From Acidimicrobiaceae bacterium (lineage in GTDB: Bacteria; Actinomycetota; Acidimicrobiia; Acidimicrobiales; AC-14), in the NCBI GenBank assembly GCA_039649175.1, contig JBBWZS010000020.1, positions 1,450 to 65,449 of the forward strand: a DNA stretch of 64,000 bases, in the 5' to 3' direction. The notes beneath the pieces were generated by a model. The model did not search any database, was not told the DNA's origin, and was given only the letters and a program-made list of their open reading frames with translations. The position numbers and the translations under genes were made by a program. Shown here piece by piece: positions 2,176 through 41,775 of this stretch (position 1 is its first letter; each line of letters begins with the position of its first letter).

Positions 2176-2239
2176 GAGATGAGGCTATCCGCACCCGGGA
2201 AGGGGCACTGGGCACCTCGGCCACCCGTAGGCTGGGGCG

Positions 2240-9450: not shown

Positions 9451-9573
9451 GAAGGCCTCCTGGGATGTGAGCTGGGGTGTTCTCTTTCGCGAGTTCTAAC
9501 ACCGCAGGTCCACCGGCGCTCGAGAGCGAAAAAGTGCCCACGTTTTGAGCAACGCCCGTGTATCCTCTTGATT

Positions 9574-12942: not shown

Positions 12943-13779
12943 TCAGGCGCCCACCACCCGGTCGCCGCCGGCGTACACGTTCATGGTGTCGCCCCGGAGG
13001 AACCCCACCAGCGTCATCCCCGCCTCCTCGGCCAGCTCCACGGCCAGGCTGGACGGTGCCGACACCGCGGCCAGGGCGGGAGCGCCGGCGATGAGGGCCT
13101 TCTGCACGAGCTCGAAGCTGGCCCGCCCCGAGGCCATCAGGACGTGCGACCGCAGGGGCAGGCGGCGGTGCATGGCCGCCCAGCCGATCACCTTGTCGAA
13201 GGCGTTGTGGCGGCCCACGTCCTCGCGAGCGCATACCAGGGTGCCGTCGGCGTCGAACAGGCCGGCGGCGTGGAGGCCCCCGGTGCGGGCGAACACCGCC
13301 TGTGCGGCACGTAGGCGGTCGGGGAGCCCGGCCAGCACCTCGACCGACAGGCGCAGGGGGTCGCCGGCCACGTCGACAGGCACTCGGGAGCGGACCGACG
13401 AGATGCTGGCCCGCCCGCACAGCCCGCACGACGAACTGGTGAACACCGCCCGAGGAGCGACGCCGGCCGCCGGGGCGTCGTCGGACACGGCCACATCGAC
13501 CACGTTGAACTCCCGGAGCGGGTCGACGGGTGCAGGCCCGGGTCCGGGTCCGCAGTAGCGCATGGCCCGCACCTGGTCACCCCGGTCGACGACGCCTTCG
13601 GTGAGCAGGAAGCCGGCAGCCAGCTCGAAGTCGTGACCGGGGGTGCGCATGGTCACGGCCATGGCCCGCCCGTTCACCCGGATCTCCAGAGGCTCCTCGG
13701 CCGCCACCACGTCGTAGGAGGTGCGCCGGGTGTCGCCCTCGATCCGCAGGAGAGGCCGGGGGACGCTGGCGCCGGGCAT
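12943..13779 (-). CDS. fdhD: Formate dehydrogenase accessory sulfurtransferase FdhD
   Basis: EEPLEIRVNG, MRTPGHDFELAAGFLLTEG, SSCGLCG, GGLHAAGLF, EDVGRHNAFDKVIGW, SGRASFELVQKA. ATG at 13779. Confidence 0.9.
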   Translation of the reverse strand: MPGASVPRPLLRIEGDTRRTSYDVVAAEEPLEIRVNGRAMAVTMRTPGHDFELAAGFLLTEGVVDRGDQVRAMRYCGPGPGPAPVDPLREFNVVDVAVSDDAPAAGVAPRAVFTSSSCGLCGRASISSVRSRVPVDVAGDPLRLSVEVLAGLPDRLRAAQAVFARTGGLHAAGLFDADGTLVCAREDVGRHNAFDKVIGWAAMHRRLPLRSHVLMASGRASFELVQKALIAGAPALAAVSAPSSLAVELAEEAGMTLVGFLRGDTMNVYAGGDRVVGA

Positions 13780-13906
13780 CGCCGGCGACGGTAGCTCAGC
13801 GGTCGAAGAATCGCAGGAGTACCGTGGCCGCTTCGAAGGGGCATCTGCGTCGGTCGGACGGCGATGGGAGGGCCACCGTGGGTACAGGCGTCGTGGGTCG
13901 CCGGTC

Positions 13907-16900
13907 GTGAGCGCCGCCGACCGGATCGCATCCTGGCCGGTGCTGCGCCAGTTGCGAGGCGGTGACCCACTCGGTCTCGGACCGGCGGCACAGTCGCCCC
14001 GGTCGGCCTCGCTGGTGCCCCGCACGGAGACCGCCGACAAGGTGGTGGACTCGATCTGCCCGTACTGCGCGGTGGGCTGCGGCCAGAAGGTGTACGTCAC
14101 CGACGGCCAGGTGACCCAGATCGAGGGCGATCCCGACAGTCCCATCTCGCGGGGGCGCTTGTGCCCCAAGGGCTCGGCCAGCCTCAGCCTGGTGACCGCC
14201 CCGGCCCGCGAGCAGAAGGTGAAGTACCGCCGGCCCTACGGCACCGAGTGGGAGGACCTCTCGCTGGTCGAAGCCATGGACCGCATCGCCGACCGGGTCA
14301 TTGCCACCAGGGCCGCAACCTGGCAGGAGCGTGACGACAACGAAGACCTCACCCTCAAGCGCACGCTGGGCTTCGCCAGCCTCGGAGGAGCGACCCTCGA
14401 CAACGAGGAGAACTACCTCATGAAGAAGCTCTACACCGCCCTGGGCGCGGTGCAGGTGGAGAACCAGGCCCGCATCTGACACTCCTCCACCGTCCCCGGT
14501 CTGGGGACCTCGTTCGGGCGGGGCGGCGCCACCACCTTCCAGCAGGACCTGCAGAACGCCGACTGCATCCTCATCCAGGGCTCCAACATGGCCGAGTGCC
14601 ACCCCGTTGGCTTCCAGTGGGTGATGGAGGCCAAGGCCCGGGGGGCGACGGTGATCCACGTCGACCCCCGGTTCACCCGCACGAGCGCCCTGGCCGACAT
14701 CCACGTGCCCATCCGGGCGGGCAGCGACATCGCCTTCCTCGGCGGCATCGTGAACCACATCCTGGCCAACGGGCGCGAGTTCCGCGAGTACGTGGCCGCC
14801 TACACCAACGCCGCGACCCTCGTCGGCGACGGCTTCGCCGACACCGAAGACCTCGACGGCCTGTTCTCGGGCTTCGACGCCGACAACAAGACCTACGACC
14901 CGGCCACCTGGCAGTACGCGGGCATGACCACCGCCACCGCCGCCGCCGGCCACCGCGAGCAGGCGATGGGCGAGGCCCACGGGCACGGGTCGAAGCACCA
15001 GGGGGCGGGTCGCCCCGACAGCGACCCGTCCCTCGAAGATCCCCGCTGCGTCTTCCAGATCCTCAAGCGCCATTTCTCGCGCTACACGCCGGAGATGGTC
15101 GAAGAGATCTGTGGTGTCCCCCCGGAGCTGTTCACCCGGGTGGCCGAGGCCCTGTGCGCCAACTCGGGACGGGAGCGCACCTCGGCGTTCGTGTACTCGG
15201 TGGGCTGGACCCAGCACACGGTGGGGGTGCAGTACATCCGCACCGCGTCCATCATCCAGTTGCTGCTGGGCAACATCGGGCGGCCGGGCGGCGGCATCCT
15301 CGCCCTGCGCGGCCACGCCAGCATCCAGGGCTCCACCGACATCCCCACGCTGTTCAACATCCTCCCCGGCTACCTGCCCATGGTGCCCGCCCGGGGGCCC
15401 GCCGACCTGGCCGCCTACATCGACGCCTACAACGCACCGGCGGGGTTCTGGGGCCACATGGACGCCTACCTGGTGAGCATGCTCAAGGCGTGGTGGGGCG
15501 ACGCCGCCACCGCCGACAACGACTATTGCTTCGACTACCTGCCGAGGATCGACGCCGACCACTCGCACTACCGCAGCACCCTCGACATGGCCGACGGCAG
15601 GGTCAAGGGCTTCTTCGTGGTGGGCGAGAACCCGGTGGTGGGCTCGGCCAACGGCCGCCTCCAGTGCCAGGCTCTGGCCAACCTCGACTGGCTGGTCGTG
15701 CGCGACCTGGTGGAGATCGAGACGGCGGCGTTCTGGTACGACTCCCCCGAGATCGACAGCGGCGAGGCCCGCACCGCCGACATCGGCACCGAGGTGTTCT
15801 TCCTGCCCGCCGCCGCCCACACCGAGAAGGACGGGAGCTTCACCAACACCCAGCGCCTCCTGCAGTGGCACCATGCCGCCGTCGAGCCGGCGGGCGACTG
15901 CCGCTCCGACCTGTGGTTCTACTTCCACCTCGGTCGCATCATCAAGGACAAGCTGGCCCACTCCACCGAGGCGCGCGACCGACCCGTCCTCGATCTCACC
16001 TGGGACTACCCCACCCACGGCCCGACGGCCGAGCCTGACGCCGAGGCCGTCCTCCGGGAGATCAGCGGGTGGGGACCGCACGGGGCCGTCGACGGGTACG
16101 CCGACCTGAAGGCCGACGGGTCCACCGCCTGCGGCTGTTGGATCTACTCGGGCTCCTACGCCGGCGAGGCCAACCAGGCGGCCCGGCGCAGGCCCGGGTC
16201 GGAGCAGTCGTGGGTGGCGCCGGAGTGGGGCTGGGCGTGGCCGGCCAATCGCCGGATGCTCTACAACCGGGCGTCGGCCGACCCCGAAGGCCGGCCCTGG
16301 TCGGCGCGGAAGGCCTACCTGTGGTGGGACGAGGATTCGGGCCGGTGGACCGGTGAGGACGTGGCCGACTTCGTCGCCACCATGCGCCCCGACTACCGGC
16401 CTCCAGAGGGTGCGTCGGCCGAGGACGCCCTGCGCGGCGACGAGCCGTTCGTGATGCAGACCGACGGACGGGGATGGCTGTTCGCGCCGACCGGCCTGGT
16501 CGACGGGCCGTTGCCCGCCCACTACGAGCCCCACGAATCACCGTTCACCAACTCGCTCTACGGCCAGGAGTGCAACCCCGCCCGCCTGATCCACTCCCGG
16601 CGCGGCAACCGCTCCAACCCCGGCGGCGGGCGGCCCGGGGCCGACGCCTTCCCCTACGTGGTGTCGACCTACCGGCTCACCGAGCACCACACCGCAGGTG
16701 GTATGAGCCGGTTCCTCGCCTACCTGTGCGAGCTCCAACCCGCCATGTTCTGCGAGGTCAGCCCCGAGCTGGCAGCCGAGCGGGGGTTGGTGAACGGCGG
16801 CTGGGCCACGGTGGTGACGTCCCGATCGGCCATCGAGGCCCGGGTGCTGGTGACCGAGCGCATGCCTGCGCTGCGCGTGCAGGGCCGCACCGTCCACCAG

Positions 16901-17116
16901 GTGGGCCTGCCCTACCACTGGGGGCGGCGCGGCCTGTCGCCCGGTGACTCGGCCAACGACCTGGCGGGCGTGGTGCTCGACCCCAACGTCCACATCCAGG
17001 AGTCCAAGGCGGCGTCGTGTGACATCCGCCCCGGCCGCCGTCCCCGAGGACCCGACCTCACCCGCCTGGTCGACGAGTACCTGGGCCGCGCCGGTATCAC
17101 GAGTGAGGGACCATGA
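13907..17116 (+). CDS. fdhA: Molybdopterin formate dehydrogenase alpha subunit, selenocysteine-containing (TGA at 14477-14479 read as Sec)
   Basis: Track ORFs 13721..14479 and 14588..17116 are in the same frame and joined through one TGA. Context is ...VQVENQARI-U-HSSTVPGLGTSFGRGGATTFQQD, the FdnG/FdhF-type Sec/Cys site. N-terminal 4Fe-4S motif CPYCAVGCG...CPKG. Start GTG 13907 gives SAADRIASWPVLRQL, which I recall as the usual N-terminus in actinobacterial homologues. Confidence 0.85.
14492..14508 (+). promoter_or_regulatory. SECIS-like hairpin 12 nt downstream of the fdhA UGA
   Basis: GTCCCC-GGTCT-GGGGAC: perfect 6-bp stem with a 5-nt loop GGUCU. From memory, the E. coli fdhF SECIS apical loop has the same loop sequence. 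Confidence 0.6.
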
Positions 17117-17958
17117 TCGCCCGACCCTCGCCGGGCGACCCGGCCACCGATGCCGGCTGGACGACCGACCAGCCCCGGCTCGGGTTCTTCACCGACACGT
17201 CGCTGTGCATCGGCTGCAAGGCCTGCGAGGTGGCGTGCAAGGAGTGGAACGGCGTGCCCGACGACGGCTTCGACTTCTCCGGCACGTCCTATGACAACAC
17301 CGGCGCGCTGGGCGCCGACACCTGGCGACACGTCACGTTCACCGAGAAGCTGGTGCCCGCACCCGGCGGTATCGGTAGCGGTGGCGGTGACGAGGTGCGT
17401 TGGCTGATGTCGTCGGATGTGTGCAAGCACTGCACACACGCCGCCTGCCTCGACGTGTGCCCCACCGGCGCCCTGTTCCGCACCGAGCACGGCACGGTTG
17501 TGGTGCAGGACGACGTGTGCAACGGGTGCGGGTACTGCGTGCCCGCCTGCCCGTTCGGGGTCATCGACCAGCGCCGGGGCGACGGCCGGGTGTGGAAGTG
17601 CACGCTCTGCTACGACCGCATCGGCGCCGGGATGACGCCGGCGTGCGCGCAGGCCTGTCCGACCGAGTCGATCAAGTTCGGCCGCCTCGACCAGCTCCGA
17701 GCCTCCGCCGACGGGCGGGTGACGACCCTGCGCGCCGGGGGCGCCCCCGACGCCCGGCTCTACGGCGCCGACACCACCGACGGCGTCGGGGGGATGGGGG
17801 CGTTCTTCCTCCTGCTCGACGACCCCGAGACCTACGGCCTCCCTCCCGACCCCGTCGTCACCACCCGCGACCTGGCTTCGATGTGGCGGACGGCGGGAGC
17901 GGCCGCTGTCGCCGTGGTGGCCAGCGTGGCCGGGGCCGTACTGGCCGGCCGCCGGTGA
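17113..17958 (+). CDS. fdhB: Formate dehydrogenase beta subunit (4x[4Fe-4S] ferredoxin-type, C-terminal TM anchor)
   Basis: ATGA overlap with fdhA. CIGCKACEVACKEWN, CKHCTHAACLDVCP, CNGCGYCVPACP, CTLCYDR...CAQACP. Hydrophobic tail AAAVAVVASVAGAVLAG. Confidence 0.9.
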   Translation: MIARPSPGDPATDAGWTTDQPRLGFFTDTSLCIGCKACEVACKEWNGVPDDGFDFSGTSYDNTGALGADTWRHVTFTEKLVPAPGGIGSGGGDEVRWLMSSDVCKHCTHAACLDVCPTGALFRTEHGTVVVQDDVCNGCGYCVPACPFGVIDQRRGDGRVWKCTLCYDRIGAGMTPACAQACPTESIKFGRLDQLRASADGRVTTLRAGGAPDARLYGADTTDGVGGMGAFFLLLDDPETYGLPPDPVVTTRDLASMWRTAGAAAVAVVASVAGAVLAGRR

Positions 17959-22963: not shown

Positions 22964-23112
22964 CGGTGCTCGACCTCCCGGAGTGCCCAGTTCGGGCGTT
23001 TGGCCGCCTGGGCCCGAGCGGCCTCGGAGCGGCGGCTCGGTGACGACATGCCTTTCTACCTCCCGGGCGACGCTCGGCTGTCCCTGCCCGACCGCAGGTA
23101 GGTTTGTCGGCA

Positions 23113-24408
23113 ATGCCCGACATCCCCGAGAACGGTCTGACCCGGCTGGTGCACCAGGTCACCGAGGTGGCCACCGGGCCCGACACCACGTTCGCCGACG
23201 GTCGCCTCACCGTCTCGGCCAAGGCCGCCCGCGAGTGCCTGGCCGACCCCGCCCTGGCTCACGTCGAGGTGACGTGGGCCTCCCCGGGCCAGTCGGTGCG
23301 CATCGTGAAGGTCCTCGACGCCGTCGAACCGAGGACCAAAGGGGCAGGTGGGGGTGGCATCTTCGCCGGCTTCGTCGGCCCCGACCGGGTCCAGGGCCGG
23401 GGATCCACGCACGTGCTGCGGGGGGCGGCGGTCGTGGTCGCCGGGTTCCTGCCCCGGGCCCAGGAAGCGGTGGTCGAGATGTCGGGCCCGGCGGCGGCCC
23501 TGTCACCCCTTGGCGCCACCCACAACCTGGTGGTCGAGTTCACCCCGGCCGAGGATGCTCCCTGGGAGGACGTCGACCGAGCCCTGCGCGGAGGCGCGTT
23601 GCGCCTGGCCGTGCATCTGGCCGATGCCGCCCTCGACACCCCGCCCGATGCCGAGGAGTGGCTGCCCGCCCCCACTCCTCCCACCGGCGGCGGCGGCCGG
23701 TACCGGGTGGGTGCCATCACCAACCTCCAGACCCAGGGCACCTTCAAGGACGTCTTCGTCTACGGCCGCAGCTTCTCGGGGGGCCTGCCCACCCTGATCG
23801 ACCCCGGCGACCTCGACGACGGGGCCGTGGTGAGCGGCCAGTTCGGGCACCCGTCGCTCAAGAACCCCACCTTCATGCATCAGAACCACCCCGTCGTCGC
23901 CGCCCTGCGGGCCCGCCACGGCGTCGACGTCGACTTCGCCGGCGTGGTGATCTCCCCCGAGCCGGTGGTCGCCAGCCAGAAGGAGTTGGTCTCGGCCCAT
24001 GCCGCCCGCCTGTGCGCGGCGGCGGGCTGGGACGCGGCCATCGTCACCAAGGAAGGCGGCGGTAACGCCGACGGCGACGTGGCCCTCAAGATGGACGCCT
24101 TGGAAGACGCCGGGGTGATGGCCGTGGGCCTGTTCGCGGAGATGGCGGGGCCCGACGGCACCGGACCACCCATCGTCGTGCCCCCGGAGCGGGCGACGGC
24201 CATGGTGAGCACCGGCAACTACGACGAGCGCCTGGTGCTGCCTGCCGTCGAGCGGGCCCTCGGAGGCGACGCGGTGGCCCTGGTCGACCGTCCTGCCACC
24301 GACGAGCTGCAGCTGCCGATCGCCGTGGTCTACTGCGCCCTGAGCCCCCTGGGCTGGGGCCACCTCACCTGCGCGCCCGAGGTCGGGACAGAGGTGTTGT
24401 CGGCATGA
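23113..24408 (+). CDS. Glycine/sarcosine/betaine reductase component B substrate-binding subunit (GrdE/GrdG/GrdI family)
   Basis: SPGQSVRIVKVLDAVEPRTKGAGGGGIF, GSTHVLRGAAVV, VEMSGPAA, TNLQTQGTFKDVFVYG, PTLIDPGDLDDGAVVSGQF-GHPSLKNPTFMHQNHPVV, IVTKEGGGN. ATG 23113; the track uses TTG 23104. Confidence 0.8.
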   Translation: MPDIPENGLTRLVHQVTEVATGPDTTFADGRLTVSAKAARECLADPALAHVEVTWASPGQSVRIVKVLDAVEPRTKGAGGGGIFAGFVGPDRVQGRGSTHVLRGAAVVVAGFLPRAQEAVVEMSGPAAALSPLGATHNLVVEFTPAEDAPWEDVDRALRGGALRLAVHLADAALDTPPDAEEWLPAPTPPTGGGGRYRVGAITNLQTQGTFKDVFVYGRSFSGGLPTLIDPGDLDDGAVVSGQFGHPSLKNPTFMHQNHPVVAALRARHGVDVDFAGVVISPEPVVASQKELVSAHAARLCAAAGWDAAIVTKEGGGNADGDVALKMDALEDAGVMAVGLFAEMAGPDGTGPPIVVPPERATAMVSTGNYDERLVLPAVERALGGDAVALVDRPATDELQLPIAVVYCALSPLGWGHLTCAPEVGTEVLSA

Positions 24409-25697
24409 GCCGGGTCGTGCACTACATCAACCAGTTCTTCGCCGGCGTGGGCGGCGAGGACTCGGCCGGCACCCCACCCACGACCCGCCCCGAAGCGGTC
24501 GGACCGGGCCGGCGCCTGGCCCAGCTCATCGGCCCCGACCACGAGGTCGTGGCCACCGTCTTCTGTGGCGACGACCACGCCTCCGGTGACCCGGCGGCCA
24601 TCGCCGAGATCATCGACCTCGTCCGCGCCGCCGAGCCCGACCTGGTGGTGGCCGGGCCCGCCTTCACCAGCGGCCGCTACGGCCTGGCCTGCGCCCGGGT
24701 GGCGGCCGCCGCCACCGCCGCCGGGATCCCCGTCATCGCCTCCATGCACCCCGACAACCCCGGCCTCGACGAGGCGGGCGGCGCTCCCGTCGTGGCCAGC
24801 GGCGAGGTGGCCCGCCAGATGGGGCCGTCACTCGACAGGCTGGCTGCCGCCGTGCGCCGGATGCTGGCAGGCGAGACGCTCACCGCCGACGACGGTCGCA
24901 TCGGCGCCGTGCCCCGCCGGTCACGGGTGGCCACCAGCGATGCCGCCAGCCGGGCCGTCGACCTGGTGCTGGCCCGCCTGGGGGGCGACGCCGCCGCCAC
25001 CGAGGTGCCCCTGCCCCGGTTCGACCACGTCACCCCGGCGGCGCCGGTCGCAGACCTGGCCACCGCCACGCTCGCCCTGGTCACCGAGTCGGCCCTGGTG
25101 CCCGACGACAATCCCGACCACCTCGAGTCGGCCCGGGCCACCAAGTGGTTGCGCTACCCCCTCGACGGCCGTGACTCGCTCACGCCCGGCGAGTGGCGCT
25201 CCGTGCACGGCGGCTTCTCGACGGTGTGGGCCAACGAGGACCCCCACCGCCTCCTGCCCCTCGACGTGGCCCGCCGCCTCGAAGGCGAGGGCCTCATCGG
25301 CAGCCTGTACCCGGCCTACCTCGTGACCGCCGGCAACGGCACGTCGGTGGGCAACGCCCGGCGCTTCGGTATCGAGTGGGCCGCCGACCTGCGCCACTCC
25401 GAGGTCCGGGCCGCCATCCTCACCGCTACCTGAGGCACCGGCACGCGTTGCGGGGCAACGCTGGCAAAAGAGCTCGAACGGGCAGGCATCCCCACCGCCT
25501 TGCTGTGCAACCTGGTGTCGATCGCCCAGCGGGTGGGTGCACCGCGCATCGTGCCCACCAGGGGCATCCCCTACCCCACCGGCGACCCGTCCCTCACCAA
25601 GGCCGACGAGAACGCCTGGCGGCTGCGCCTGGTCAAGACCGCCCTGGGGGCCCTGGCCACCCCGGTGAAGCAGCCCACCGTGTTCGAAGTGGCGTAA
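24405..25697 (+). CDS. Glycine/sarcosine/betaine reductase selenoprotein B family (GrdB/GrdF/GrdH), TGA at 25431-25433 read as Sec
   Basis: ATGA overlap with the upstream gene. MSRVVHYINQFFAGVGGED. Track ORFs 24405..25433 and 25500..25697 are in the same frame through ...AAILTAT-U-GTGTRCGATLAKELERAGIP, the classical GrdB 'LT(S/A)T-U-GTCTRCGAT' site. Confidence 0.85.
25443..25463 (+). promoter_or_regulatory. SECIS-like hairpin 9 nt downstream of the grdB-like UGA
   Basis: cagcgttg-cgggg-caacgctg: 8-bp stem with a 5-nt G-rich loop. Confidence 0.5.
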
Positions 25698-25724
25698 CCA
25701 GCCCACTGTGGCCATCCTGGTCTC

Positions 25725-27218
25725 ATGACCGATCGTGCTGTGATCAGCGGGGCCTCCCAGGTGCTGGCCCACGTCCCCGGGCTGGCCCGTCACGGGTCCA
25801 AGCCCCGGCGGGAGCTGGCCAAAGACGAAGGCGTGCAGAAGGCGTTCCTGGCCGCCCTGCGCAGCACCGGCGAGGCGGTGGCCTACGCGCCCCACCAGGC
25901 GTGGCTGGGGGCCCTCCACCCCCGTGACCTCCCCGAACGGCCTTGGGCCCGCCGGCCCGGGCAGAGCCCGGGAGGCAGTGGCGGCGTCGGCCAGGGAGCG
26001 GCCGAGGCCTCGGCCGGCGGGCCCGACGGCACCATGGTGGGCGAGGAGGAGTTCCTCGGGCTGCTGGCCGTGGTCGACGAGTTCGGCCTCATCACCCTCG
26101 ACCCCGAGGCCGCCGACCGGTCCGCCGCCGCCCTGGCCGCCCACCCCCTGGCCAAGGCCCTCGACCTCGACCTCATCGACCGGGCGCGCGGCGACGCCGG
26201 GAAGGTGGCAGCCGAAGACGGCTCCCTGCCCCTGCACGTCGGTGCCGACCGCCTGGTCGGCGCCGTCCGGGGTGCCCAGGCCGACGACGAGTCGCTGTCG
26301 GCCCACGTCCTGCTCGAGAACCTGGCCTCCAAGGCCACCGCCACCCTGGCCCTGCTCCACCTGCTGGCCGCCGGTGACGTCGACCCGACGTCGATCGACT
26401 ACGTGCTGTCCTGCGGCGAGGAGGCCATCGGCGACCGCTACCAGCGGGGGGGCGGCAACCTGGCCAAGGCCGTCGCCCAGGCGGCCGGGCTCACCGAGGC
26501 GTCGGGCGCCGACATCAAGAACTTCTGCGCCGCCCCGGTGCCCGCCCTGGTGATGGCGTCGGCCCTGGTGGCGTCCGGGGTCTTCCGCCGGGTGGCAGTC
26601 GTGGCCGGGGGATCGCTGCCCAAGCTGGGCATGAAGTTCCAGGGTCACCTGTCCCACGACCTGCCCGTGCTCGAAGACGTCCTCGGCGGCACCGCCGCCG
26701 TCATCGAGGCCGACGACGGCCGCTCGCCCATCGTCCGGCTCGACGCCGTGGGCCGCCACCGGGTGGCCGCCGGCGGGTCGGCCCCCCAGATCATGGAGGC
26801 CCTCGCCGTCGAGCCGCTGGAACGGGTCGGCCTGGCCATGACCGACGTCGACGACTTCGCCACCGAGCTGCACAATCCCGAGATCACCGAGCCCCAGGGC
26901 TCGGGCGACGTGGCCGCCCGCAACTACCGCACCATGGCCGCCCTGGCCGTGCGCCGGGGCGACCTCGAGCGCGACGACCTCGCCCGCTTCGTCACCGAGC
27001 GGGGCATGCCCGGGTTCGCCCCCACCCAGGGGCACCTGGCATCGGCGCTGTGCTACCTGCCCCACGCCCTGCGTCGACTGACCGCCGGGGACGCAGGTAG
27101 GGTCTGCCTCGTCGCCAAGGGAAGCCTGTTTCTCGGACGGATGTGCCAGCTTTCCGACGGCATGAGCATGCTGCTGGAGCGCAACCCGGCCGCCGAATCG
27201 CAGGGGAGGGCGACATGA
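25725..27218 (+). CDS. grdC: Glycine reductase complex component C, beta subunit-like (GrdC)
   Basis: The N-terminus AVISGASQVLAHVPGLARHGS...AYAPHQAWLGAL resembles my recollection of the GrdC N-terminus. Thiolase-like core with NFCAAP. 497 aa. Confidence 0.7.
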   Translation: MTDRAVISGASQVLAHVPGLARHGSKPRRELAKDEGVQKAFLAALRSTGEAVAYAPHQAWLGALHPRDLPERPWARRPGQSPGGSGGVGQGAAEASAGGPDGTMVGEEEFLGLLAVVDEFGLITLDPEAADRSAAALAAHPLAKALDLDLIDRARGDAGKVAAEDGSLPLHVGADRLVGAVRGAQADDESLSAHVLLENLASKATATLALLHLLAAGDVDPTSIDYVLSCGEEAIGDRYQRGGGNLAKAVAQAAGLTEASGADIKNFCAAPVPALVMASALVASGVFRRVAVVAGGSLPKLGMKFQGHLSHDLPVLEDVLGGTAAVIEADDGRSPIVRLDAVGRHRVAAGGSAPQIMEALAVEPLERVGLAMTDVDDFATELHNPEITEPQGSGDVAARNYRTMAALAVRRGDLERDDLARFVTERGMPGFAPTQGHLASALCYLPHALRRLTAGDAGRVCLVAKGSLFLGRMCQLSDGMSMLLERNPAAESQGRAT

Positions 27219-27556
27219 CCACCGTCACCGAGGTCACCAAGGACACCTTCGAAGACCTCACCGCCGAGGGCACCGTCCTCATCGACGTCTGGGGCCCGGC
27301 GTGCGTGCCCTGTGTGGCCCTGACCCCCCACGTCGAGCGCCTGGCCGAGCAGCGACCCGACCTCCAGGTCCTCAAGTTGGAGGCGCCCAAGAACCGGCGG
27401 CTGTGCATCGACATGAAGGTCATGGGCATGCCGGCGTTCCTGCTGTTCCGGGACGGCGCCGAGGTGGCCCGGCTCTCCGACCCCGAGCTCACGCCCGAAG
27501 CTCTCACGTCCTGGCTCGACACCACGCTCGAGACCCTGAACCCCGAAGGGGGGTAA
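27215..27556 (+). CDS. trxA: Thioredoxin with a W-G-P-A-C-V-P-C active site
   Basis: ATGA overlap with grdC and a GGGGAGGG RBS. LIDVWGPACVPCVALTPHVERLA...MPAFLLF. The CVPC redox motif is the one recalled for the Grd-associated thioredoxins of Eubacterium acidaminophilum and Clostridium species. Confidence 0.85.
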   Translation: MTTVTEVTKDTFEDLTAEGTVLIDVWGPACVPCVALTPHVERLAEQRPDLQVLKLEAPKNRRLCIDMKVMGMPAFLLFRDGAEVARLSDPELTPEALTSWLDTTLETLNPEGG

Positions 27557-27562
27557 CACACC

Positions 27563-28048
27563 ATGTTGAAAGACCGTCTGGTCATCGCCCTGGGTGAACG
27601 CGACGGCATCTCCGGCCCGTCCATCGAGGCCTGCGTCCGGGCTGCGGGAGGCAAAGTGGTCTTCGGGGCCACCGAGTGCTTCGTCTGAACCGCAGCCGGA
27701 GCCATGGACCTGCACAGCCAGGAGGCGATTCTCCGCCTGGTGGGTGAGCACGGCCCGCAGAACCTGATGGTGATCCTGGGCGCTCCCGATCCCGAGAGCG
27801 CAGAGATCGCCGCAGAGACTGTGGTGCTGGGCGACCCGTCGTACGCAGGACCATTGGCCGGGGCCCAGTTGGGCCTCGACGTGTACCACGTCCTCGAAGA
27901 CGCCATAAAGGCCGACGTGCCCGACGACGTCTGGGAGGAACAGATCGGCGTGATGGCCGATGTCCTCGACGGCCCTGGTGTGGCCACCGCGGTGGCCGCC
28001 ATGCGCGCCCAGGCACCCGACTCACCGGAGGCACCCGCCACCGCCTGA
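27563..28048 (+). CDS. grdA: Glycine/sarcosine/betaine reductase complex selenoprotein A, TGA at 27686-27688 read as Sec
   Basis: Hand translation: MLKDRLVIALGERDGISGPSIEACVRAAGGKVVFGATECFV-U-TAAGAMDLHSQEAILRLVGEHGPQNLMVILGAPDPESAEIAAETVVLGDPSYAGPLAGAQLGLDVYHV. This matches the GrdA signature CFVUTAAGAMD. The track shows only the post-TGA part (27704..28048). Confidence 0.9.
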
Positions 28049-28060
28049 CCGCTGCGCCAC

Positions 28061-28088
28061 GCGGGGACCGCCGGTCAGCGGTCCCCGC
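28061..28088. terminator. Hairpin between convergent grdA and the LLM gene
   Basis: gcggggaccgc-cggtca-gcggtccccgc: 11-bp perfect stem. The loop contains the stop codon of the minus-strand LLM gene. Confidence 0.5.
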
Positions 28089-29064
28089 CGGCGATGGCCG
28101 GCAACACCTCTTTGTCGTAGAAGCGCAGGAAGCCGTCCTGGTCCGGCCCGATCTGGTGGACCAGGATCTGGCTGTACCCGGCGGCTGCGAACGAGGCGAT
28201 GAGCTCGAGGTGACGGGCCGGGTCGGGCCCGAGGGCGACGGTGCCGACCATGTCGTCCGGTCGGGCCAGGGCGAGCACCCGGGCGAAGTCCTTCGGGTGG
28301 GCCAGCTCGGTCAGGGCCGACCCCTTCAGGGCCCCGTTCGGCCACCAGCGCGCCGCGGTGCGGCGGGCCTCGTCATCGCTGGCGGCCCAACACACGTGAA
28401 CCTGGGCAACACGCGGCTTGCCCGCCCCGCCCGCTCCCTCGAAGGTCTCCACGTGGCGGCTGGAGGGCGTGACCCCGAAGTAGCCGTCGCCGATGCGCCC
28501 GGCGAGGGCGGCACTGGCCTTCGACGAGCCGGCGACCACGATCGACGGTGGTCGTCGCGGCAGGGTGAACAGCTGGGCCTGCTCCACCGTGTAGTGGGTG
28601 CCCCGGTGGTCGACGGTGCCGCCCTCCCACAGCCGGCGGATGACGCCGACCGCCTCCTCCAGCATCTCCCGGCGCTCGTCGGGGCGGGGCCAGCGGGCGC
28701 CGGTGACGTGCTCGTTGAGCCGTTCCCCGGTGCCGACGCCGAGGAAGAAGCGGCCGTCGCAGAGCACGGCCACGGTGGCGGCGGCGTGGGCGATGATGGC
28801 GGGGTGCACGCGGATCAGGGGGGCGGTGACGCCGGTGCCGATGCGGAGCTGCTCGGTGGCCTGGGCGATGGCACCCAGCACCGACCACACGAACGGGCTC
28901 TGACCCTGCTCGGGCACCCACGGGTGGAAGTGGTCGGAGATGCCCGCCAGTCGGAAGCCGATCTCCTCGGCTCGTGCCGCGTTGCGCACCAGCGCCTTGG
29001 GGTCGTGCTCCTCGCACGACAGCCAGTACCCGAGCTCGAGGAGCGGGCGGGCTGCGTCAGCCAC
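28075..29064 (-). CDS. Luciferase-like (LLM class) F420-dependent oxidoreductase, G6PDH-related subfamily
   Basis: LELGYWLSCEEHDPKALVRNAARAEEIGF...ISDHFHPWVPEQGQSPFVWSVLGAIA, GRFFLGVGTGERLNEHV. GTG 29064 overlaps the upstream gene's stop by 8 nt. Confidence 0.8.
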   Translation of the reverse strand: MADAARPLLELGYWLSCEEHDPKALVRNAARAEEIGFRLAGISDHFHPWVPEQGQSPFVWSVLGAIAQATEQLRIGTGVTAPLIRVHPAIIAHAAATVAVLCDGRFFLGVGTGERLNEHVTGARWPRPDERREMLEEAVGVIRRLWEGGTVDHRGTHYTVEQAQLFTLPRRPPSIVVAGSSKASAALAGRIGDGYFGVTPSSRHVETFEGAGGAGKPRVAQVHVCWAASDDEARRTAARWWPNGALKGSALTELAHPKDFARVLALARPDDMVGTVALGPDPARHLELIASFAAAGYSQILVHQIGPDQDGFLRFYDKEVLPAIAGGDR

Positions 29065-29812
29065 CGCCGGTCTCCGCCGCGGCGTGGATCGCGTCGGGGC
29101 GGGCCACACCGACGAGGCGACCGGCCAGGGTCGTCACCACCACCCACGGGGCGGGGCTGTGCGCCAGGTTGGCTGACATCTCCTCGGCGCTCACGTGGGG
29201 CCGGTAGGTGCTGGGCCCCTCCTGCATGACCTCGGCGATGGTGCGGCTGTCCTCCATGCCCAGGGCTTCGGCCCGCACCAGGCCCAGCACCACCCGCTCC
29301 GACGGCGCCGTCACCAGGGCCAGCTCCCACCCGTCGACGCGCGCGCGCACGGCCGACACCTGTTCGTCGAGCGTGCAGGTGGGAACGGTCGCATCGGCCA
29401 GGCTCGACAGTCGGGGCTGATCGGCCAGCGTGCCCTCGAAAGGAAGACCGTCGCCGATCCACTCCATCTTCGAGCCCACGTAGTCGTAGACCTCGGCGAA
29501 CCCCAGGCTCTCGAGCCGCCACGCGGCTCGTGGGCTCATGTCTCAGAGCGAGTCGTAGCAGTAGACGATCACCGGCCGGCTCTGGTCGAGGCGTTCGGGC
29601 GCCAGATCGGCCAGCTCGGTGAGCGGCACGTGCACGGCGCCGGTGATGTGGGACTCGTCCCACTCGGCTTTGGGCATGACGTCGACCAGTTGGGCGCCGG
29701 TGCCCATCAGGCGCTGGACTTCGTGGCGGTCGATCTCGGTGGGCACGAGCAACTCCTTGGCAGTGGCGCAACGGGCGCCCGTACTCCCCTTCCCAGATCG
29801 GCCGTGGCTCAT
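29057..29812 (-). CDS. Rhodanese-CBS pair protein with an in-frame TGA (29543-29545) read as selenocysteine (C-x4-U motif)
   Basis: Track ORFs 29543..30364 (C-terminal part) and 29057..29539 are in the same frame: ...LVDVMPKAEWDESHITGAVHVPL...RPVIVYCYDSL-U-DMSPRAAWRLESLGFAEVYDYVGSKMEWIGDGLPFEG. The rhodanese fold continues uninterrupted across the TGA and is followed by a CBS pair. ATG 29812. Confidence 0.65.
29512..29530 (-). promoter_or_regulatory. SECIS-like hairpin 12 nt downstream of the rhodanese UGA
   Basis: mRNA CGAGCCG-CGUGG-CGGCUCG: 7-bp perfect stem with a 5-nt loop. Confidence 0.45.
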
Positions 29813-29887
29813 AACCTTGCGGGACCGGGTAAGCATCAGGTCTGGCGTCGGTCCGGACGTCACCGACCCGCTGATCGCAGGAGGATC

Positions 29888-30052
29888 ATGAGCCAGATTG
29901 GCGACCTGTTGAGCCGGAGCAGCTGCGCCCAGTGCGGGGCGAAGGTCTTCATGACCGACGAGGGCCGGGTGGCCTGCGAGGGTTGCCAGCTCCCCACCGA
30001 AGAGTGCACCTGTGAGGGTGCCGTCAAACCCGACACCCAGCTCCCCGTCTGA
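29888..30052 (+). CDS. Small (54 aa) Cys-rich zinc-ribbon-like protein
   Basis: GGAGGA RBS 2 nt before the ATG. CAQCG-x13-CEGC-x6-CTCEG. High GC3. Its 3' end overlaps the next gene by 35-41 nt, which lowers confidence. Confidence 0.45.
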   Translation: MSQIGDLLSRSSCAQCGAKVFMTDEGRVACEGCQLPTEECTCEGAVKPDTQLPV

Positions 30053-31151
30053 GGCCTCGGGCATCGCCGGCTCCGGAGACGAGGGACTCGGACGCAGGCG
30101 GCGGTGGCGCGCCTGGTCGATCGTGCGCCTGGTGGGCGGCCTGGCCCTGGCCGCCGTCGCCGTCAACCTGATCGCCGGCCGGCGCGCCGAGCTGGAGGGT
30201 GCCACCGCCATCCTGAGTGGGCTGCGGTGGGAGTGGCTCGTGCTGGCCTTCGCCATCGAGGTGACGTCGGTGGTGGCCTTCGCCGAGGTGGAGCGGCGCA
30301 TGCTCGGTGCCGGTGGACTGCGGGTCGGGCTCTGGCCGCTCACCGGCATCGCCCTGGCCGGCAACTCGGTGCAGAACTCCCTGCCCGGCGGTGTGGCCTG
30401 GGCCAGTGTCTTCGCCTACCGCCAGTTCCGGGCCCGGGGTGCCGACGACGTGCTGGCGGCCTGGACCATGGTGGCCGTCGAGATCCTCTCCGGTGCGTCC
30501 CTCGCAATCGTGGCCGGCGTCGGGGTGGCCCTGGCCGGCGACACCGCCACCGACCTCAACCTAGTGGGGACCATCCTCGCGGTGGCGGCGATTGCCCTCG
30601 CCGTCGTCCTGGTCGTGCGCCGACGCGGCGAGCACGTGCCCGTGACCGTGGGGTCCTGGGTGCTCAGGACGGCCCAGCGGGTGACCGGCCGCCCCCGGGG
30701 CGACGCCCACCAGATCGTCCTGCACGGGTGGCAACGGCTGGTGACGGTCACGCCCAGCCGGGCCGACTGGGCCATCGGCCTGTGCTGGTCGGCGGTCAAC
30801 TGGCTGGCCGACTGCGCGTGCCTGGCCATCGCCTTCCTGGCCGTCGGTGCCGCGGTGCCGTGGCAGGGCCTGCTCCTGGCCTACGGGGCCGGCCAACTGG
30901 CCGCCAACCTCCCGTTCACGCCCGGCGGCCTCGGCGTGGTGGAGGGCAGCCTGGCCATCGCCTTGGTGGCCTACGGCAACAACGAGGCGTCGACGGTGGC
31001 CGCCGTGCTGCTGTACCGGGTGGTGAGCTTCTGGGCCATGCTCCCCCTCGGCTGGACGGCTTGGGCCGTCCTGACCGCCCGGGCCCGCCATCTCGCCGAC
31101 GGGGACGCTCGACGCTCTCTCCTTCCCTCCGCCGCCGGGGGTGAGGGGTGA
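30012..31151 (+). CDS. Lysylphosphatidylglycerol-synthase TM-region-like (UPF0104, flippase-like) membrane protein
   Basis: Multi-TM protein with AYGAGQLAANLPFTPGGLGVVEGSL motif. Confidence 0.75.
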   Translation: MRVPSNPTPSSPSEASGIAGSGDEGLGRRRRWRAWSIVRLVGGLALAAVAVNLIAGRRAELEGATAILSGLRWEWLVLAFAIEVTSVVAFAEVERRMLGAGGLRVGLWPLTGIALAGNSVQNSLPGGVAWASVFAYRQFRARGADDVLAAWTMVAVEILSGASLAIVAGVGVALAGDTATDLNLVGTILAVAAIALAVVLVVRRRGEHVPVTVGSWVLRTAQRVTGRPRGDAHQIVLHGWQRLVTVTPSRADWAIGLCWSAVNWLADCACLAIAFLAVGAAVPWQGLLLAYGAGQLAANLPFTPGGLGVVEGSLAIALVAYGNNEASTVAAVLLYRVVSFWAMLPLGWTAWAVLTARARHLADGDARRSLLPSAAGGEG

Positions 31152-39141: not shown

Positions 39142-40194
39142 TCAGGCGGCGTAGACGTCGATCTCGGTGGCTTTCACCGACACCCAGACCGGGCCTCCGT
39201 CCCGGAGGTGGAGGTCGGCAGCGGCCGCCGGCGTCACCTCGGCCACGATGGGCGGGGAGCCGGCGATCTCGACCCGCACGCGATCGGCCTGGAGATCGAG
39301 GGCTCCGGCCTCGCCCGCCCAGATGTTGCGGGGGCTGCCCTCGGGACGGCTGCGGTGCAGGGCGACGGCCCGGGGGTGCACCAGGGCGAAGACGGGCCCC
39401 CGCAGGTCGCCGGCCACGGTGAGCGAGCCTCCGGCGGTGAGGGTGACCTCGGCGCCCCGGGCCGTGCCCTCGAAGAGGTTGAGGCCCACCAGGGCGGCCA
39501 CCCACGGCGAGCGGGGCCGGGCCGTGACCTCCGACATGGGCCCCTGCTGGGTGACCCGGCCGTTCTCGACGACCACGAGGCGGTCGCCGATGGCCATGGC
39601 GTCGACGGGGTCGTGGGTGACCATCACCCGGACGCCGGCCGACCCGGCCAGCCGGGCCCGCAGCTCACGGCGTAGCTGGGCCCTGCCGGCGGCGTCGACC
39701 GCGGCGAGGGGCTCGTCGAGCAACAGGAGGGCGGGCTCGGTGGCCAGGGCCCGGGCCAGGGCCACCCGCTGGGCCTCGCCCCCCGACAGGGCGGAGGGGC
39801 GGCGGGAAGCGAGCTCGCCGACGCCCATCCGGTCGAGCCACTCCCGCGCCGACCGGCGGGCGCCGAACCGCCGCCGGCCCCTGGCCCGCAGCCCGTAGGC
39901 GACGTTGTCGAGGGCGCTCAAATGCGGGAACAGGAGGTAGTCCTGGAACACGACGGCGACCGGTCGCCGCTCGGGCGGCACGTGGATGCCGGTCGCGGTG
40001 TCGTCGAGCACGACGCCGTCGAGGACAACGTGGCCCCGGTCGATGGCGGTCAGTCCCGCCAGGGCGCGCAGCAGGGTGGTCTTGCCTGCGCCGTTGGGGC
40101 CGACGACGGCGACGATCTCGGCGGCGGTGGCGTCGAGGGCGACGGCGAGGTCGAGCGATCCCACCCGGACGGCCAGGTCAGCGCGAAGACCCAT
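39142..40194 (-). CDS. modC: Molybdate ABC transporter ATP-binding protein with a C-terminal TOBE/Mop domain
   Basis: GPNGAGKTT, LSGGEAQRVALARAL, LLLDEP. Operon context with modB and modA. Confidence 0.85.
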   Translation of the reverse strand: MGLRADLAVRVGSLDLAVALDATAAEIVAVVGPNGAGKTTLLRALAGLTAIDRGHVVLDGVVLDDTATGIHVPPERRPVAVVFQDYLLFPHLSALDNVAYGLRARGRRRFGARRSAREWLDRMGVGELASRRPSALSGGEAQRVALARALATEPALLLLDEPLAAVDAAGRAQLRRELRARLAGSAGVRVMVTHDPVDAMAIGDRLVVVENGRVTQQGPMSEVTARPRSPWVAALVGLNLFEGTARGAEVTLTAGGSLTVAGDLRGPVFALVHPRAVALHRSRPEGSPRNIWAGEAGALDLQADRVRVEIAGSPPIVAEVTPAAAADLHLRDGGPVWVSVKATEIDVYAA

Positions 40195-40975
40195 CTCCTC
40201 CCACCAACCTCCCCCGTAGGGCCACCAGCACGGCCAAGGCGACCCCCAGCAGGACCAGCGACAGGGCGATGGCGCCCTCGGGCCGGGTCTGGAGGGTGAC
40301 GTAGATGGCGCTGGGCATGGTCTGGGTGCGGCCCGGGAGGTTGCCGGCGAAGGTGATGGTGGCGCCGAACTCGCCCAGGGCGCGCGCCCAGCACAGGGCG
40401 GCGCCGGCGGCCACCGAGGGAGCGGCCAGGGGAAGGGTGACGGTGCGGAACCTCCGCCAGGGGCCGGCCCCCAGGGTCGCGGCGGCCTCGTCGTAGCACC
40501 GGTTGGCCTGGCGCAGGCCGGCCTCGGCGGTGATGACCAGGAACGGCATGGCCACGAACGCCTCGGCCACGATCACCCCTCTGGTGGTGAAGGGCAGCGG
40601 GAACCCGGGCAGCGACCCGAAGTGGCGTCCGAGGAAGCCGCCCCGTCCGAACGCCGACAGCAGGGCGACGCCGCCCACGACGGGCGGCAGCACCATGGGC
40701 AGCAGGACCAGGGCTCGCACCAGCGAGCGGCCGGGGAACGACAACCGGGCCAGGACCCAGGCCAGCGGCACCCCGAGCACGACGGCCACCGCCAGCGCGC
40801 CCAGCGAGCACTCCAGCGAGAGGCGCAGGGCCTGGCCCACCTCGGGAGTGGACAGCTCCGGGCCCAGCCGTGACCACGGCGCCCGTTGCAGCAGGCCGAT
40901 GAGGGGCACGGCGACCAGCGCCACTGCCCCCACCGCGGGCACGACGAGCCCCAGCGGTGGACGGGCCTTACTCAC
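40178..40975 (-). CDS. modB: Molybdate ABC transporter permease
   Basis: CysTW-type permease with the EAA loop ...ARALGEFGATITFAGN. Confidence 0.85.
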   Translation of the reverse strand: MSKARPPLGLVVPAVGAVALVAVPLIGLLQRAPWSRLGPELSTPEVGQALRLSLECSLGALAVAVVLGVPLAWVLARLSFPGRSLVRALVLLPMVLPPVVGGVALLSAFGRGGFLGRHFGSLPGFPLPFTTRGVIVAEAFVAMPFLVITAEAGLRQANRCYDEAAATLGAGPWRRFRTVTLPLAAPSVAAGAALCWARALGEFGATITFAGNLPGRTQTMPSAIYVTLQTRPEGAIALSLVLLGVALAVLVALRGRLVGGDGSSR

Positions 40976-41775
40976 GGGGCCCCGAAGCCGTGGGACGCCA
41001 GGGTGGCCTCACCGGCGCCGCCCACCAGGTCGTCGACGAACGCCTGGGCGCGGCGGCGGTTCGTGGTGGCGCGCACCACGGCAGCCGGATACCGGGTCAC
41101 CACGTTGGCATCGTCGGGGATCTCGACTCGTGTCACCTCGTCGCCGGCCGCGGCCGCGTCGGTGACGTAGACGATGCCGGCGTCGGCGTCGCCGGATGCC
41201 ACCCGGCGCAGCACCGCCTTCACGTCCAGCTCCCGTGACACCGGGTGCACCGTCACACCGGCGCGCCGCAGCGCCTCGGCGGCCGACCGTCCCGCCGGCA
41301 CCGCAGGGTCGGCGAGGACCACCCTCCGGTCGTCGTTGGCCAGGTCACCCAGCGAGGACACACCCTTGGGGTTGCCTCTTTGCACCACGATGGCCAGCTT
41401 GTTGTGCGCGAAGATCCGGGGAGCGTCGACCAGCCCGGCCGCCACCAACGGCGCCATGCTGGTCTCGTCGGCGGTGGCCACCACGTCGGCAGGGGCGCCG
41501 GCGCCGACCTGGGCCACAACCTGCTGGGACCCGGCGAAGCTGTAGGTGACGGCCAGGCCGGCGTGGTCGGTCGCCCGCCGCCAGCCGGGGTCGTCGAACG
41601 CCTCGGTGAGCGAGGCGGCCGCCACCACGGTGAGCGAGCCAGTGGCGCCATGCGTCGATGGCGGCGAGGCACCGACGTGGCAGCCGCCGGCGGCCAGCGC
41701 CGTGACCGCGAGCATCGCCGTCGCCACCACCGCCCGCGGGCGGGAACGGCGCCGGCCCCCTCTCACTCCGGTCAC
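40972..41775 (-). CDS. modA: Molybdate-binding periplasmic lipoprotein
   Basis: GTGA overlap with the upstream regulator gene. Signal/lipobox ...LAAGGC. LTVVAAASLTEAFD, FAGSQQVVAQV..GAPADVVATAD. Confidence 0.8.
   Translation of the reverse strand: MTGVRGGRRRSRPRAVVATAMLAVTALAAGGCHVGASPPSTHGATGSLTVVAAASLTEAFDDPGWRRATDHAGLAVTYSFAGSQQVVAQVGAGAPADVVATADETSMAPLVAAGLVDAPRIFAHNKLAIVVQRGNPKGVSSLGDLANDDRRVVLADPAVPAGRSAAEALRRAGVTVHPVSRELDVKAVLRRVASGDADAGIVYVTDAAAAGDEVTRVEIPDDANVVTRYPAAVVRATTNRRRAQAFVDDLVGGAGEATLASHGFGAP

Follow-up and report, generated by a model that had tools for sequence, protein, structure and literature searches.

The rhodanese-CBS gene and its reading frame

The stretch of DNA considered here, called the window throughout, comprises 64,000 nucleotides of contig JBBWZS010000020.1 (positions 1,450 to 65,449 of the forward strand) in the genome assembly GCA_039649175.1 of an Acidimicrobiaceae bacterium. 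Its minus strand carries a gene (29057..29746) whose predicted product joins a rhodanese domain to a pair of CBS domains, and which is interrupted by an in-frame UGA that is proposed here to encode selenocysteine (Sec). The window presents this gene as two minus-strand open reading frames (ORFs), 29543..30364 and 29057..29539, which lie in one frame and are separated only by the TGA (29545-29543) and a GAC codon, with the coordinates that a first-pass annotation, made from the sequence alone, had given for them. Translation of 29746..29057 reads VPTEIDRHEV...RPVIVYCYDSL, then the UGA, then DMSPRAAWRLESLGF...GGG and the stop codon. The gene thus counts 229 codons, the UGA among them as residue 68, and ends with the TGA at 29059-29057.

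In the first-pass annotation the frame had been opened at the ATG at 29812, giving a truncated product of 89 residues. The true start is almost certainly the GTG at 29746-29744 instead, because the orthologues and the Cys-containing homologues begin there and because a Shine-Dalgarno-like AAGGAG, read directly from the sequence (29753..29758), precedes this GTG by 6 nt. All orthologues and full-length homologues share the N-terminal motif M-P-x-E-I/V-D-R, which aligns with GTG 29746. A product ending at the UGA would therefore have 67 residues.

Directly downstream on the same strand lies a gene (28075..29064) for an F420-dependent LLM-class oxidoreductase of the TIGR03557 family (407 bits, with a cut-off of 210). 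Its GTG start (29064-29062) overlaps the stop codon of the rhodanese-CBS gene in the sequence GTGGCTGA, and this overlap suggests that both genes form an operon with translational coupling. A scan of positions 27900-30200 found no promoter-like site and one terminator-like site, which falls inside the LLM gene and is probably there by chance.

Domain architecture and fold

The Pfam Rhodanese profile (PF00581) matches residues 8-97 (29456..29725) with 60.5 bits, above its cut-off of 22.2, and the match crosses the TGA, so that the uninterrupted rhodanese domain of the first-pass reading is borne out. The canonical catalytic cysteine of the rhodanese fold, placed at the end of the central β-strand, corresponds to Cys63 (codon TGC, 29558..29560), and the UGA (29543..29545) lies five residues past it, as the last residue of the active-site loop ahead of a helix formed by residues 70-80. 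These positions were taken from an AlphaFold2 model of P0001, a Cys orthologue 65% identical to the window protein, built from an alignment of 72 sequences (pLDDT 96.8, pTM 0.87). In this model a strand at 59-62 ends at Tyr62 and leads into the active-site loop at 63-69, which contains both cysteines and is followed by the helix. Among PDB entries, Bacillus halodurans BH2092 (3nhv) matches best in both sequence and fold (E = 2e-7, root-mean-square deviation of 1.6-1.7 Å over ~106 columns).

The C-terminal part, residues ~111-225 (29072..29416), corresponds to a CBS pair (Bateman module) and includes a conserved cysteine, Cys124 (codon TGC, 29377-29375). This assignment, also made in the first-pass annotation, agrees with three lines of evidence: the family profile matches the CBS structures MJ0100, PH1780, IMPDH and CBSX1/2, the Pfam CBS domain (PF00571) is detected in 27 of 33 family members, and the structural model superposes on the CBS pairs of MgtE, ST2348 and AcuB. 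None of the PDB entries among the structure matches spans both a rhodanese and a CBS domain.

A Cys/TGA column in the family

When the joined protein, with U replaced by C, was used as a query, two types of match were obtained: full-length proteins of ~229 residues with 45-65% identity, and proteins of ~160 residues with 60-93% identity, all of which start with MSPRAAW..., at a Met two codons past the TGA. Cys63 is invariant in 72 full-length homologues and Cys68, the residue at the TGA column, is at least 90% conserved; conservation is similar for Asp65, Asp69 and Cys124, the last of these again at least 90%. The relatives thus align across the junction with either Cys or TGA at that column, the outcome by which the first-pass annotation had proposed to judge its reading.

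The underlying DNA was then compared in 58 related loci, designated here by L numbers, which were taken from collections of genomes and metagenomes. At column 68, 48 of the 56 scorable loci have TGA and eight have TGC or TGT; two loci (L032 and L039) were read by hand. The Cys63 codon is TGC in all 46 Sec forms and in all eight Cys forms, and is replaced by TGA in a subclade described below. The metagenome-assembled genomes (MAGs) that supplied the TGA forms bear the labels Acidimicrobiales, Gaiellaceae, Solirubrobacterales and Actinomycetota, and identities to the window protein go down to ~38%. Chloroflexota were brought in by a second search and by contig look-ups, and are represented by Ardenticatenaceae (GCA_027493995.1) and by Chloroflexi (GCA_022561095.1). 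Cluster representatives at 50% identity were also searched exhaustively; ~95 of the best 150 are calls of ~150-175 residues that start exactly past the TGA-GAC and ~24 are full-length, a ratio of ~4:1, from which the Sec state appears to be commoner in the family than the Cys state. Hundreds of public records split these genes into a 'rhodanese' fragment of 62-80 residues and a ~160-residue 'CBS domain-containing' or 'hypothetical' protein; in NCBI and JGI records the fragments are named 'rhodanese-like domain-containing', 'CBS domain-containing' or 'hypothetical'.

A rough, midpoint-rooted neighbour-joining tree of 121 sequences requires at least six switches between Sec and Cys. The nucleotides of the element downstream of the UGA, described in the next section, are identical in all TGA clusters and across two phyla, and because of this identity the simplest reading would be an ancient Sec form that was repeatedly converted to Cys, possibly with horizontal transfer.

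The hairpin downstream of the UGA

A hairpin begins 12 nt past the UGA (29512..29530, minus strand), with its 5' arm at 29530-29523, a GUG loop at 29522-29520 and its 3' arm at 29519-29512. The sequence, CGAGCCGC-GUG-GCGGCUCG, has a folding free energy of -14.0 kcal/mol and can be drawn either with 8 bp and a 3-nt loop or with 7 bp and a 5-nt loop, the latter being the form in which it had first been put forward as a candidate selenocysteine insertion sequence (SECIS). Its geometry is one that we take to fit the bSECISearch consensus.

In the comparative data the hairpin behaves as a SECIS would be expected to, with synonymous sites that are frozen in the TGA forms only. Four stem codons are fixed among the 46 non-redundant TGA forms, namely GCC (Ala, 46/46), GCG (Ala, 46/46), CGG (Arg, 45/46) and CTC (Leu, 45/46), and the fifth is CGA or CGG, either of which pairs with the opposite U (A-U or G-U). 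The neighbouring Pro, Gly, Leu and Ser positions use three to five synonymous codons each. Over the whole gene, 46 codon columns are conserved and at least four-fold degenerate, and the four fixed stem codons have the four lowest entropies among them; the chance that four columns named beforehand would rank lowest is 1 in C(46,4), or ~6e-6. Across the loci 97.2% of the cells are paired, with two wobble-compatible single changes. Where Cys forms encode this RAAWRLE peptide with other codons (e.g. CGG GCG GCA TGG CGG CTG), the equivalent 19 nt reach only -3.2 to -6.8 kcal/mol, against -14.0 for the TGA-type hairpin; the hairpin has decayed in seven of the eight Cys forms.

The remaining Cys form, L019 (6205-6260), has TGT at the column and an intact hairpin, CGAGCCGCGTCGCGGCTCG, of -14.0 kcal/mol, which suggests a recent switch from Sec to Cys. 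Two further loci have variant hairpins. L009 (~6440-6470) carries the hairpin AAGGCCGCGUGGCGACUCG, with an internal mismatch, together with a (Gly-Leu)n insertion (GLGLGLGLGL) in its CBS region. L021 (~6001-6360) has a C-U mismatch in the hairpin and appears frameshifted at a point between its N-terminus and the active site, which would reflect either decay of the gene or misassembly.

A subclade with two UGA codons

Six independent contigs (L039, L059, L060, L061, L064 and L065) have TGA at the positions of both Cys63 and Cys68, a U-x4-U arrangement. L039 (784-801) reads ...VIVY-TGA-CAC-GAC-GCG-CTC-TGA-GAC-ATG..., and it was missed by the motif search since both positions are TGA, and was recovered by hand reading; L065 comes from the Chloroflexi MAG GCA_022561095.1. 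The general form of these loci is Y-U-x4-U-DMSPRAAWRLE, in which the residues between both TGAs vary (HDAL, HDSG, MDGL); in L059, L060, L061, L064 and L065 the site lies 18 nt before a called gene of ~170 residues. They share the hairpin of the C-x4-U forms, and one SECIS could plausibly serve both codons, because the first UGA lies 27 nt ahead of the stem. A diselenide is a possible active site for this subclade. The series C-x4-C, C-x4-U and U-x4-U argues that the two loop positions act as a chemical pair.

Selenocysteine use by the organism

The window contains three further genes with in-frame TGA codons at the Sec sites of classical selenoproteins, so the organism uses Sec, as the first-pass reading requires. 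The formate dehydrogenase alpha subunit FdhA (13718-17116, plus strand) matches NF041513 with 1560 bits, and the profile resumes at position 187 directly past the TGA (UGA at 14477-14479). Its element consists of the UGA, 12 nt and GUCCCC-GGUCU-GGGGAC, a type which we take to resemble that of E. coli. A GrdB-type selenoprotein B (plus strand) has its UGA at 25431-25433 and its SECIS at 25434-25471, where UGA, 11 nt and GCGUUGC-GGG-GCAACGC coincide with a match to Rfam SECIS_4 (RF01990). The third is the selenoprotein A gene grdA (27563-28048, plus strand; UGA at 27686-27688). TGA has not been reassigned, since it is the ordinary stop of 33 of the 39 confident ORFs of the window.

A tRNA search of the window found none. 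Among the related loci, three Gaiellales-like contigs carry a tRNA-Sec gene 3' of the orthologue, at a distance of 0.4-1.8 kb and always on the minus strand (L022, 934-1026; L045, 5063-5155; L056, 2275-2367), with the anticodon TCA according to ARAGORN and 68 bits to Rfam RF01852 (cut-off 47). Neither selA nor selB was seen beside these tRNA genes. A 94-nt 'tRNA-Arg (ccg)' called by ARAGORN ~0.9 kb 3' of the Ardenticatenaceae orthologue (L062, 9396-9489, and L063, 2290-2383, minus strand) was considered as an unusual tRNA-Sec for its length and position; Rfam finds no tRNA there, and the call is probably a false positive.

Other genes of this region were also recorded. FdhD (12943-14235, minus strand), a formate dehydrogenase beta subunit (17107-17958) and the molybdate ABC transporter genes modB/modC (39142-41008, minus strand) are in the same window as the Sec-containing FdhA. 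The GrdB and GrdA genes belong to a glycine/sarcosine/betaine reductase cluster (23044-28048, plus strand) with GrdE/GrdG-like, Sec-GrdB, GrdC-beta, thioredoxin and Sec-GrdA products, whose best NCBIfam matches lean towards the sarcosine or betaine type, with scores below the cut-offs. An ORF at 8065-9495 (minus strand) in this selenoprotein-rich region matches weakly the methanethiol oxidase MtoX of the selenium-binding-protein family (94.8 bits, with a cut-off of 650).

Genomic context

An LLM homologue lies on the same strand and within 80 nt of the rhodanese-CBS gene in about 24-27 related loci. It is located 3' of the gene in the Acidimicrobiales-type clade, including the Cys form L015, and 5' of it in the Gaiellales-type clade, and because the adjacency is kept in two gene orders there is good evidence for a functional link between the two products. 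The first-pass annotation had instead drawn attention to the neighbouring grd genes. That adjacency is real in the window, but it is kept elsewhere only in the closest relative, L001, and for this reason the grd linkage is not taken as functional evidence; the conserved partner is the LLM oxidoreductase.

A ferritin-like protein recurs as a neighbour in 12 loci, and GH15 trehalase-like proteins, AhpC, a CopZ-like zinc finger and an ArsR regulator are recurrent neighbours as well. MerA-like reductases, which combine HMA and pyridine-nucleotide disulfide domains, are found near the gene in L011, L015, L017, L021 and L062/L063, for instance at 3020-4708 of L017 (minus strand; TIGR02053, 586 bits) and at 2173-3861 (minus strand) and 13177-14838 (plus strand) of L062, where they occur together with AhpC, a CopZ-like zinc finger and a CsoR-like repressor. 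These MerA-type neighbours hint at a context of metal or thiol stress.

Divergent from the rhodanese-CBS gene, a small ORF (29888-30052, plus strand) encodes a Cys-rich product of 54 residues, MSQIGDLLSRSSCAQCGAKVFMTDEGRVACEGCQLPTEECTCEGAVKPDTQLPV, preceded by an AGGAGG ribosome-binding site. It has no Pfam match; a counterpart is present in L001 (96%) and, with weak conservation, in L009.

Proposed mechanism

The proposed model is that the UGA at 29545-29543 is decoded as Sec by the standard bacterial route, in which the hairpin at 29530-29512 would serve as the SECIS and, while the ribosome pauses at the UGA, bring SelB-GTP-Sec-tRNA(Sec) to it. The decoding mechanism is in itself conventional. 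It is supported by a continuous reading frame and fold, by the Cys/TGA column, by the nucleotide constraint specific to the SECIS and by the use of Sec in the organism, and a probability of about 0.85 to 0.9 is assigned to the UGA being a Sec codon served by this hairpin. The resulting residue, Sec68, would end the extended loop C63-Y-D-S-L-U68 and would most likely form a redox-active selenenylsulfide pair with Cys63, mirroring the C-x4-C of the Cys orthologues and the U-x4-U of the sister subclade. One member of the pair may carry or attack a persulfide, a perselenide or another bound substrate, and the other would then resolve the intermediate. A role in gating or relaying this chemistry upon ligand binding is most likely for the CBS pair, which includes the conserved Cys124, and the protein probably works together with the co-transcribed F420-dependent LLM oxidoreductase. 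The role of a selenium or sulfur relay or sensor, as put forward in the first-pass annotation, is likewise hypothetical. For the explanation as a whole, that is, a Sec-containing rhodanese-CBS protein of 229 residues with a redox Cys-Sec pair, gating by the CBS pair and an LLM partner, the estimate is about 0.85; actual Sec insertion, the chemistry, the substrate, the CBS ligand and the link to the LLM enzyme are inferred.

A more far-reaching version would make this protein the core of an undescribed, ligand-gated system for selenol redox chemistry or for sulfur or selenium transfer, mostly dependent on Sec. Its Cys-Sec pair, or a Sec-Sec diselenide in the U-x4-U subclade, would be turned over either with reducing power that the co-transcribed F420-dependent LLM enzyme supplies or on one of that enzyme's substrates. 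In some lineages the neighbouring MerA-like, CopZ-like and ArsR genes might tie such a system to metal or metalloid stress, and the adjacent selC might tie it to the supply of selenium. This version is speculative and is considered rather unlikely at present.

Several results weigh against the proposed model, some of them on the side of the RNA element. Single-sequence folding of the hairpin is not significant (z = -0.85 and -1.23) in DNA of 72% GC. The covariation test found no compensatory double changes, and because the element is near-invariant across two phyla no claim of covariation can be made; its support is conservation. Neither an Rfam scan of the window at gathering thresholds nor a scan of 29350-29650 at E <= 10 gave a SECIS match at the rhodanese site; in the scan of the window the grdB element was the only SECIS match, and a match to radC, the only one in 29350-29650, was judged to be due to chance. 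As the Rfam SECIS models are taken to cover particular types, this miss is not taken to exclude SECIS function. With regard to the machinery, a search of the 64 kb revealed none of selA, selB, selC and selD. As for the protein and its partner, the Pfam CBS domain is not detected in the window protein alone at E <= 0.1, and the LLM gene is absent, despite enough flanking sequence, from L001 (the closest relative), L002, L008, L009, L011, L013, L016 and the Chloroflexota loci, so the partnership is not universal.

Alternative explanations

Four alternative readings were weighed, all of them improbable. According to the first, the UGA is read through with a residue other than Sec. This could be Cys, inserted by a tRNA-Sec-like tRNA-Cys together with a SelB-like factor, a system known from work on unusual tRNAs, or it could be Trp or Arg, brought in by a near-cognate tRNA. 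At a SECIS-dependent UGA, insertion of Sec and insertion of Cys look alike to sequence analysis, and the window showed neither selA nor selD, which is in keeping with such a scheme. However, the UGAs of FdhA, GrdB and GrdA in the same window are classical Sec sites, and the tRNAs next to three orthologues match the Rfam model of tRNA-Sec, with 68 bits and the anticodon UCA. Insertion of Cys at a UGA would moreover bring no gain over the TGC codon that relatives use.

The second alternative, with a similarly low probability, is that the UGA and its hairpin serve mainly as a selenium-responsive switch, so that scarcity of selenium would stop synthesis of the full-length protein and, through the GTGGCTGA junction, that of the LLM enzyme as well. 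Such a function could coexist with Sec insertion. Translation of the LLM gene may indeed need ribosomes that finish the upstream gene, given the overlap between stop and start, and the dominance of Sec forms in the family also counts in favour of a switch. This coupling cannot operate in the Gaiellales-type clade, however, where the LLM gene is located 5' of the rhodanese-CBS gene, nor is there an LLM neighbour in the Chloroflexota loci. The UGA column is also Cys in at least 90% of the full-length Cys homologues and is paired there with the catalytic cysteine, as would be expected of a catalytic residue.

Slightly less probable still is that the UGA is a true stop, with a separate rhodanese fragment of 67 residues and a 160-residue product starting at ATG 29539, as public pipelines annotate. 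Gene callers split the gene in this way in hundreds of records, and the window does have an ATG two codons past the TGA. But this split would cut the active-site loop of one compact domain, no ribosome-binding site precedes ATG 29539, and the position of this ATG is CTG, CTC, CTT or TTG in many orthologues (e.g. L009, L020, L027 and L054), of which CTC and CTT cannot start translation. A true stop would also leave unexplained why the synonymous sites of the hairpin are frozen in the TGA forms only, and why full-length homologues have Cys at the column.

Finally, a nonsense mutation or sequencing error in a decaying gene, for which the frameshifted appearance of L021 might speak, is effectively refuted by the comparative data, as 48 loci, drawn from many samples and from two phyla, all have the TGA at exactly this column, flanked by protein sequence that is conserved down to ~38% identity.

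Implications of the proposed family

If the UGA is a Sec codon as proposed, a widespread selenoprotein family with hundreds of relatives would be added to those of soil Actinomycetota (Acidimicrobiia, Gaiellales-like and Solirubrobacterales-like lineages) and Chloroflexota. A family model combined with the invariant SECIS would correct hundreds of misannotated records. The C-x4-C, C-x4-U and U-x4-U variants indicate that both loop positions may be chemically active, which provides a testable hypothesis for the rhodanese class to which PDB 3nhv belongs. The conserved association with an LLM enzyme that depends on F420 suggests a possible and unexplored link between F420 metabolism and the redox chemistry of selenium or sulfur, and if the reading of an F420-LLM-coupled enzyme is true, this would be the first F420-linked rhodanese selenoenzyme.

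Relation to known rhodaneses and SECIS elements

The Sargasso Sea survey already brought Sec-containing rhodaneses to light. A 2026 review distinguishes five forms, with the motifs UxxS, UxxG, CxU, UxxG and UxxxxU, the last being TsoB, and mentions neither CBS, nor Actinobacteria or Actinomycetota, nor the string CxxxxU (PMC13188914). No mention of a rhodanese-CBS selenoprotein is made in the deep-Sep and BSepDB papers or in a preprint on the selenoproteins of Actinomarina. The literature search found no paper that combines rhodanese, CBS domain and selenocysteine, and no selenoprotein survey that mentions Acidimicrobiia; likewise, none of the curated selenoprotein models and papers searched describes a rhodanese-CBS form. 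The novelty claimed in the first-pass annotation is consistent with this literature, and the window protein is placed with the Sec-rhodaneses as a putative new form.

Among the known forms, TsoB (NCBIfam NF045694) shares with the window protein the rhodanese domain, a Sec within or adjacent to the active-site loop and the four-residue spacing of its UxxxxU motif. It is, however, a rhodanese/DsbD-like fusion with a model of 572 positions, whereas the window protein is a rhodanese-CBS fusion of 229 residues, which scores 21.8 bits against a cut-off of 805, in its rhodanese part only. The rhodanese_LYCAU form (NF041203, motif CxU) also keeps the canonical Cys and has Sec as a second loop residue; the loop of the window protein is YCYDSLU and not LYCAU, and the score is 27.1 bits against a cut-off of 115. 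As regards the 'form 1' Sec-rhodanese (Geobacter, WP_010941598.1), compared by motif only, an overlap has to be allowed for, since its UxxS motif is also present in the loop of the window protein (U-D-M-S).

The candidate SECIS shares with the bacterial elements of the fdhF/fdnG and grdB types a stem-loop 11-12 nt past the UGA, a stem of 6-8 bp and a small apical loop that starts with G, and its spacing and stem size agree with those of the FdhA element (loop GGUCU) and the GrdB element (loop GGG) of this window. It differs from them in its GUG loop, in having no Rfam match and in being near-invariant across two phyla.

The closest relative of known structure, BH2092 (PDB 3nhv and 3o3w), is a single-domain rhodanese that was solved in a structural genomics effort and is uncharacterised. 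Its loop, YCWGPACNGATKAA, is extended in the same way and has a C-x4-C motif whose second Cys falls at the UGA column, so that the rhodanese type 'YCxxxxC..S..AA..L' named in the first-pass annotation does exist. Its loop is presumably two residues longer than that of the GlpE type. In contrast to the window protein, BH2092 has Cys in place of the proposed Sec, lacks the CBS pair and comes from a Firmicute. Closer still are the Cys-containing rhodanese-CBS orthologues, annotated by JGI as 'rhodanese-related sulfurtransferase/CBS domain-containing protein', which match the window protein in length and architecture at the 45-65% identity given above. They share with it the conserved Cys124, the loop YCYDxLCDMSPRAA and, in some cases such as L015, the LLM neighbour, and they differ from it in the TGC or TGT codon that replaces the TGA and in the decay of the hairpin seen in most of them.

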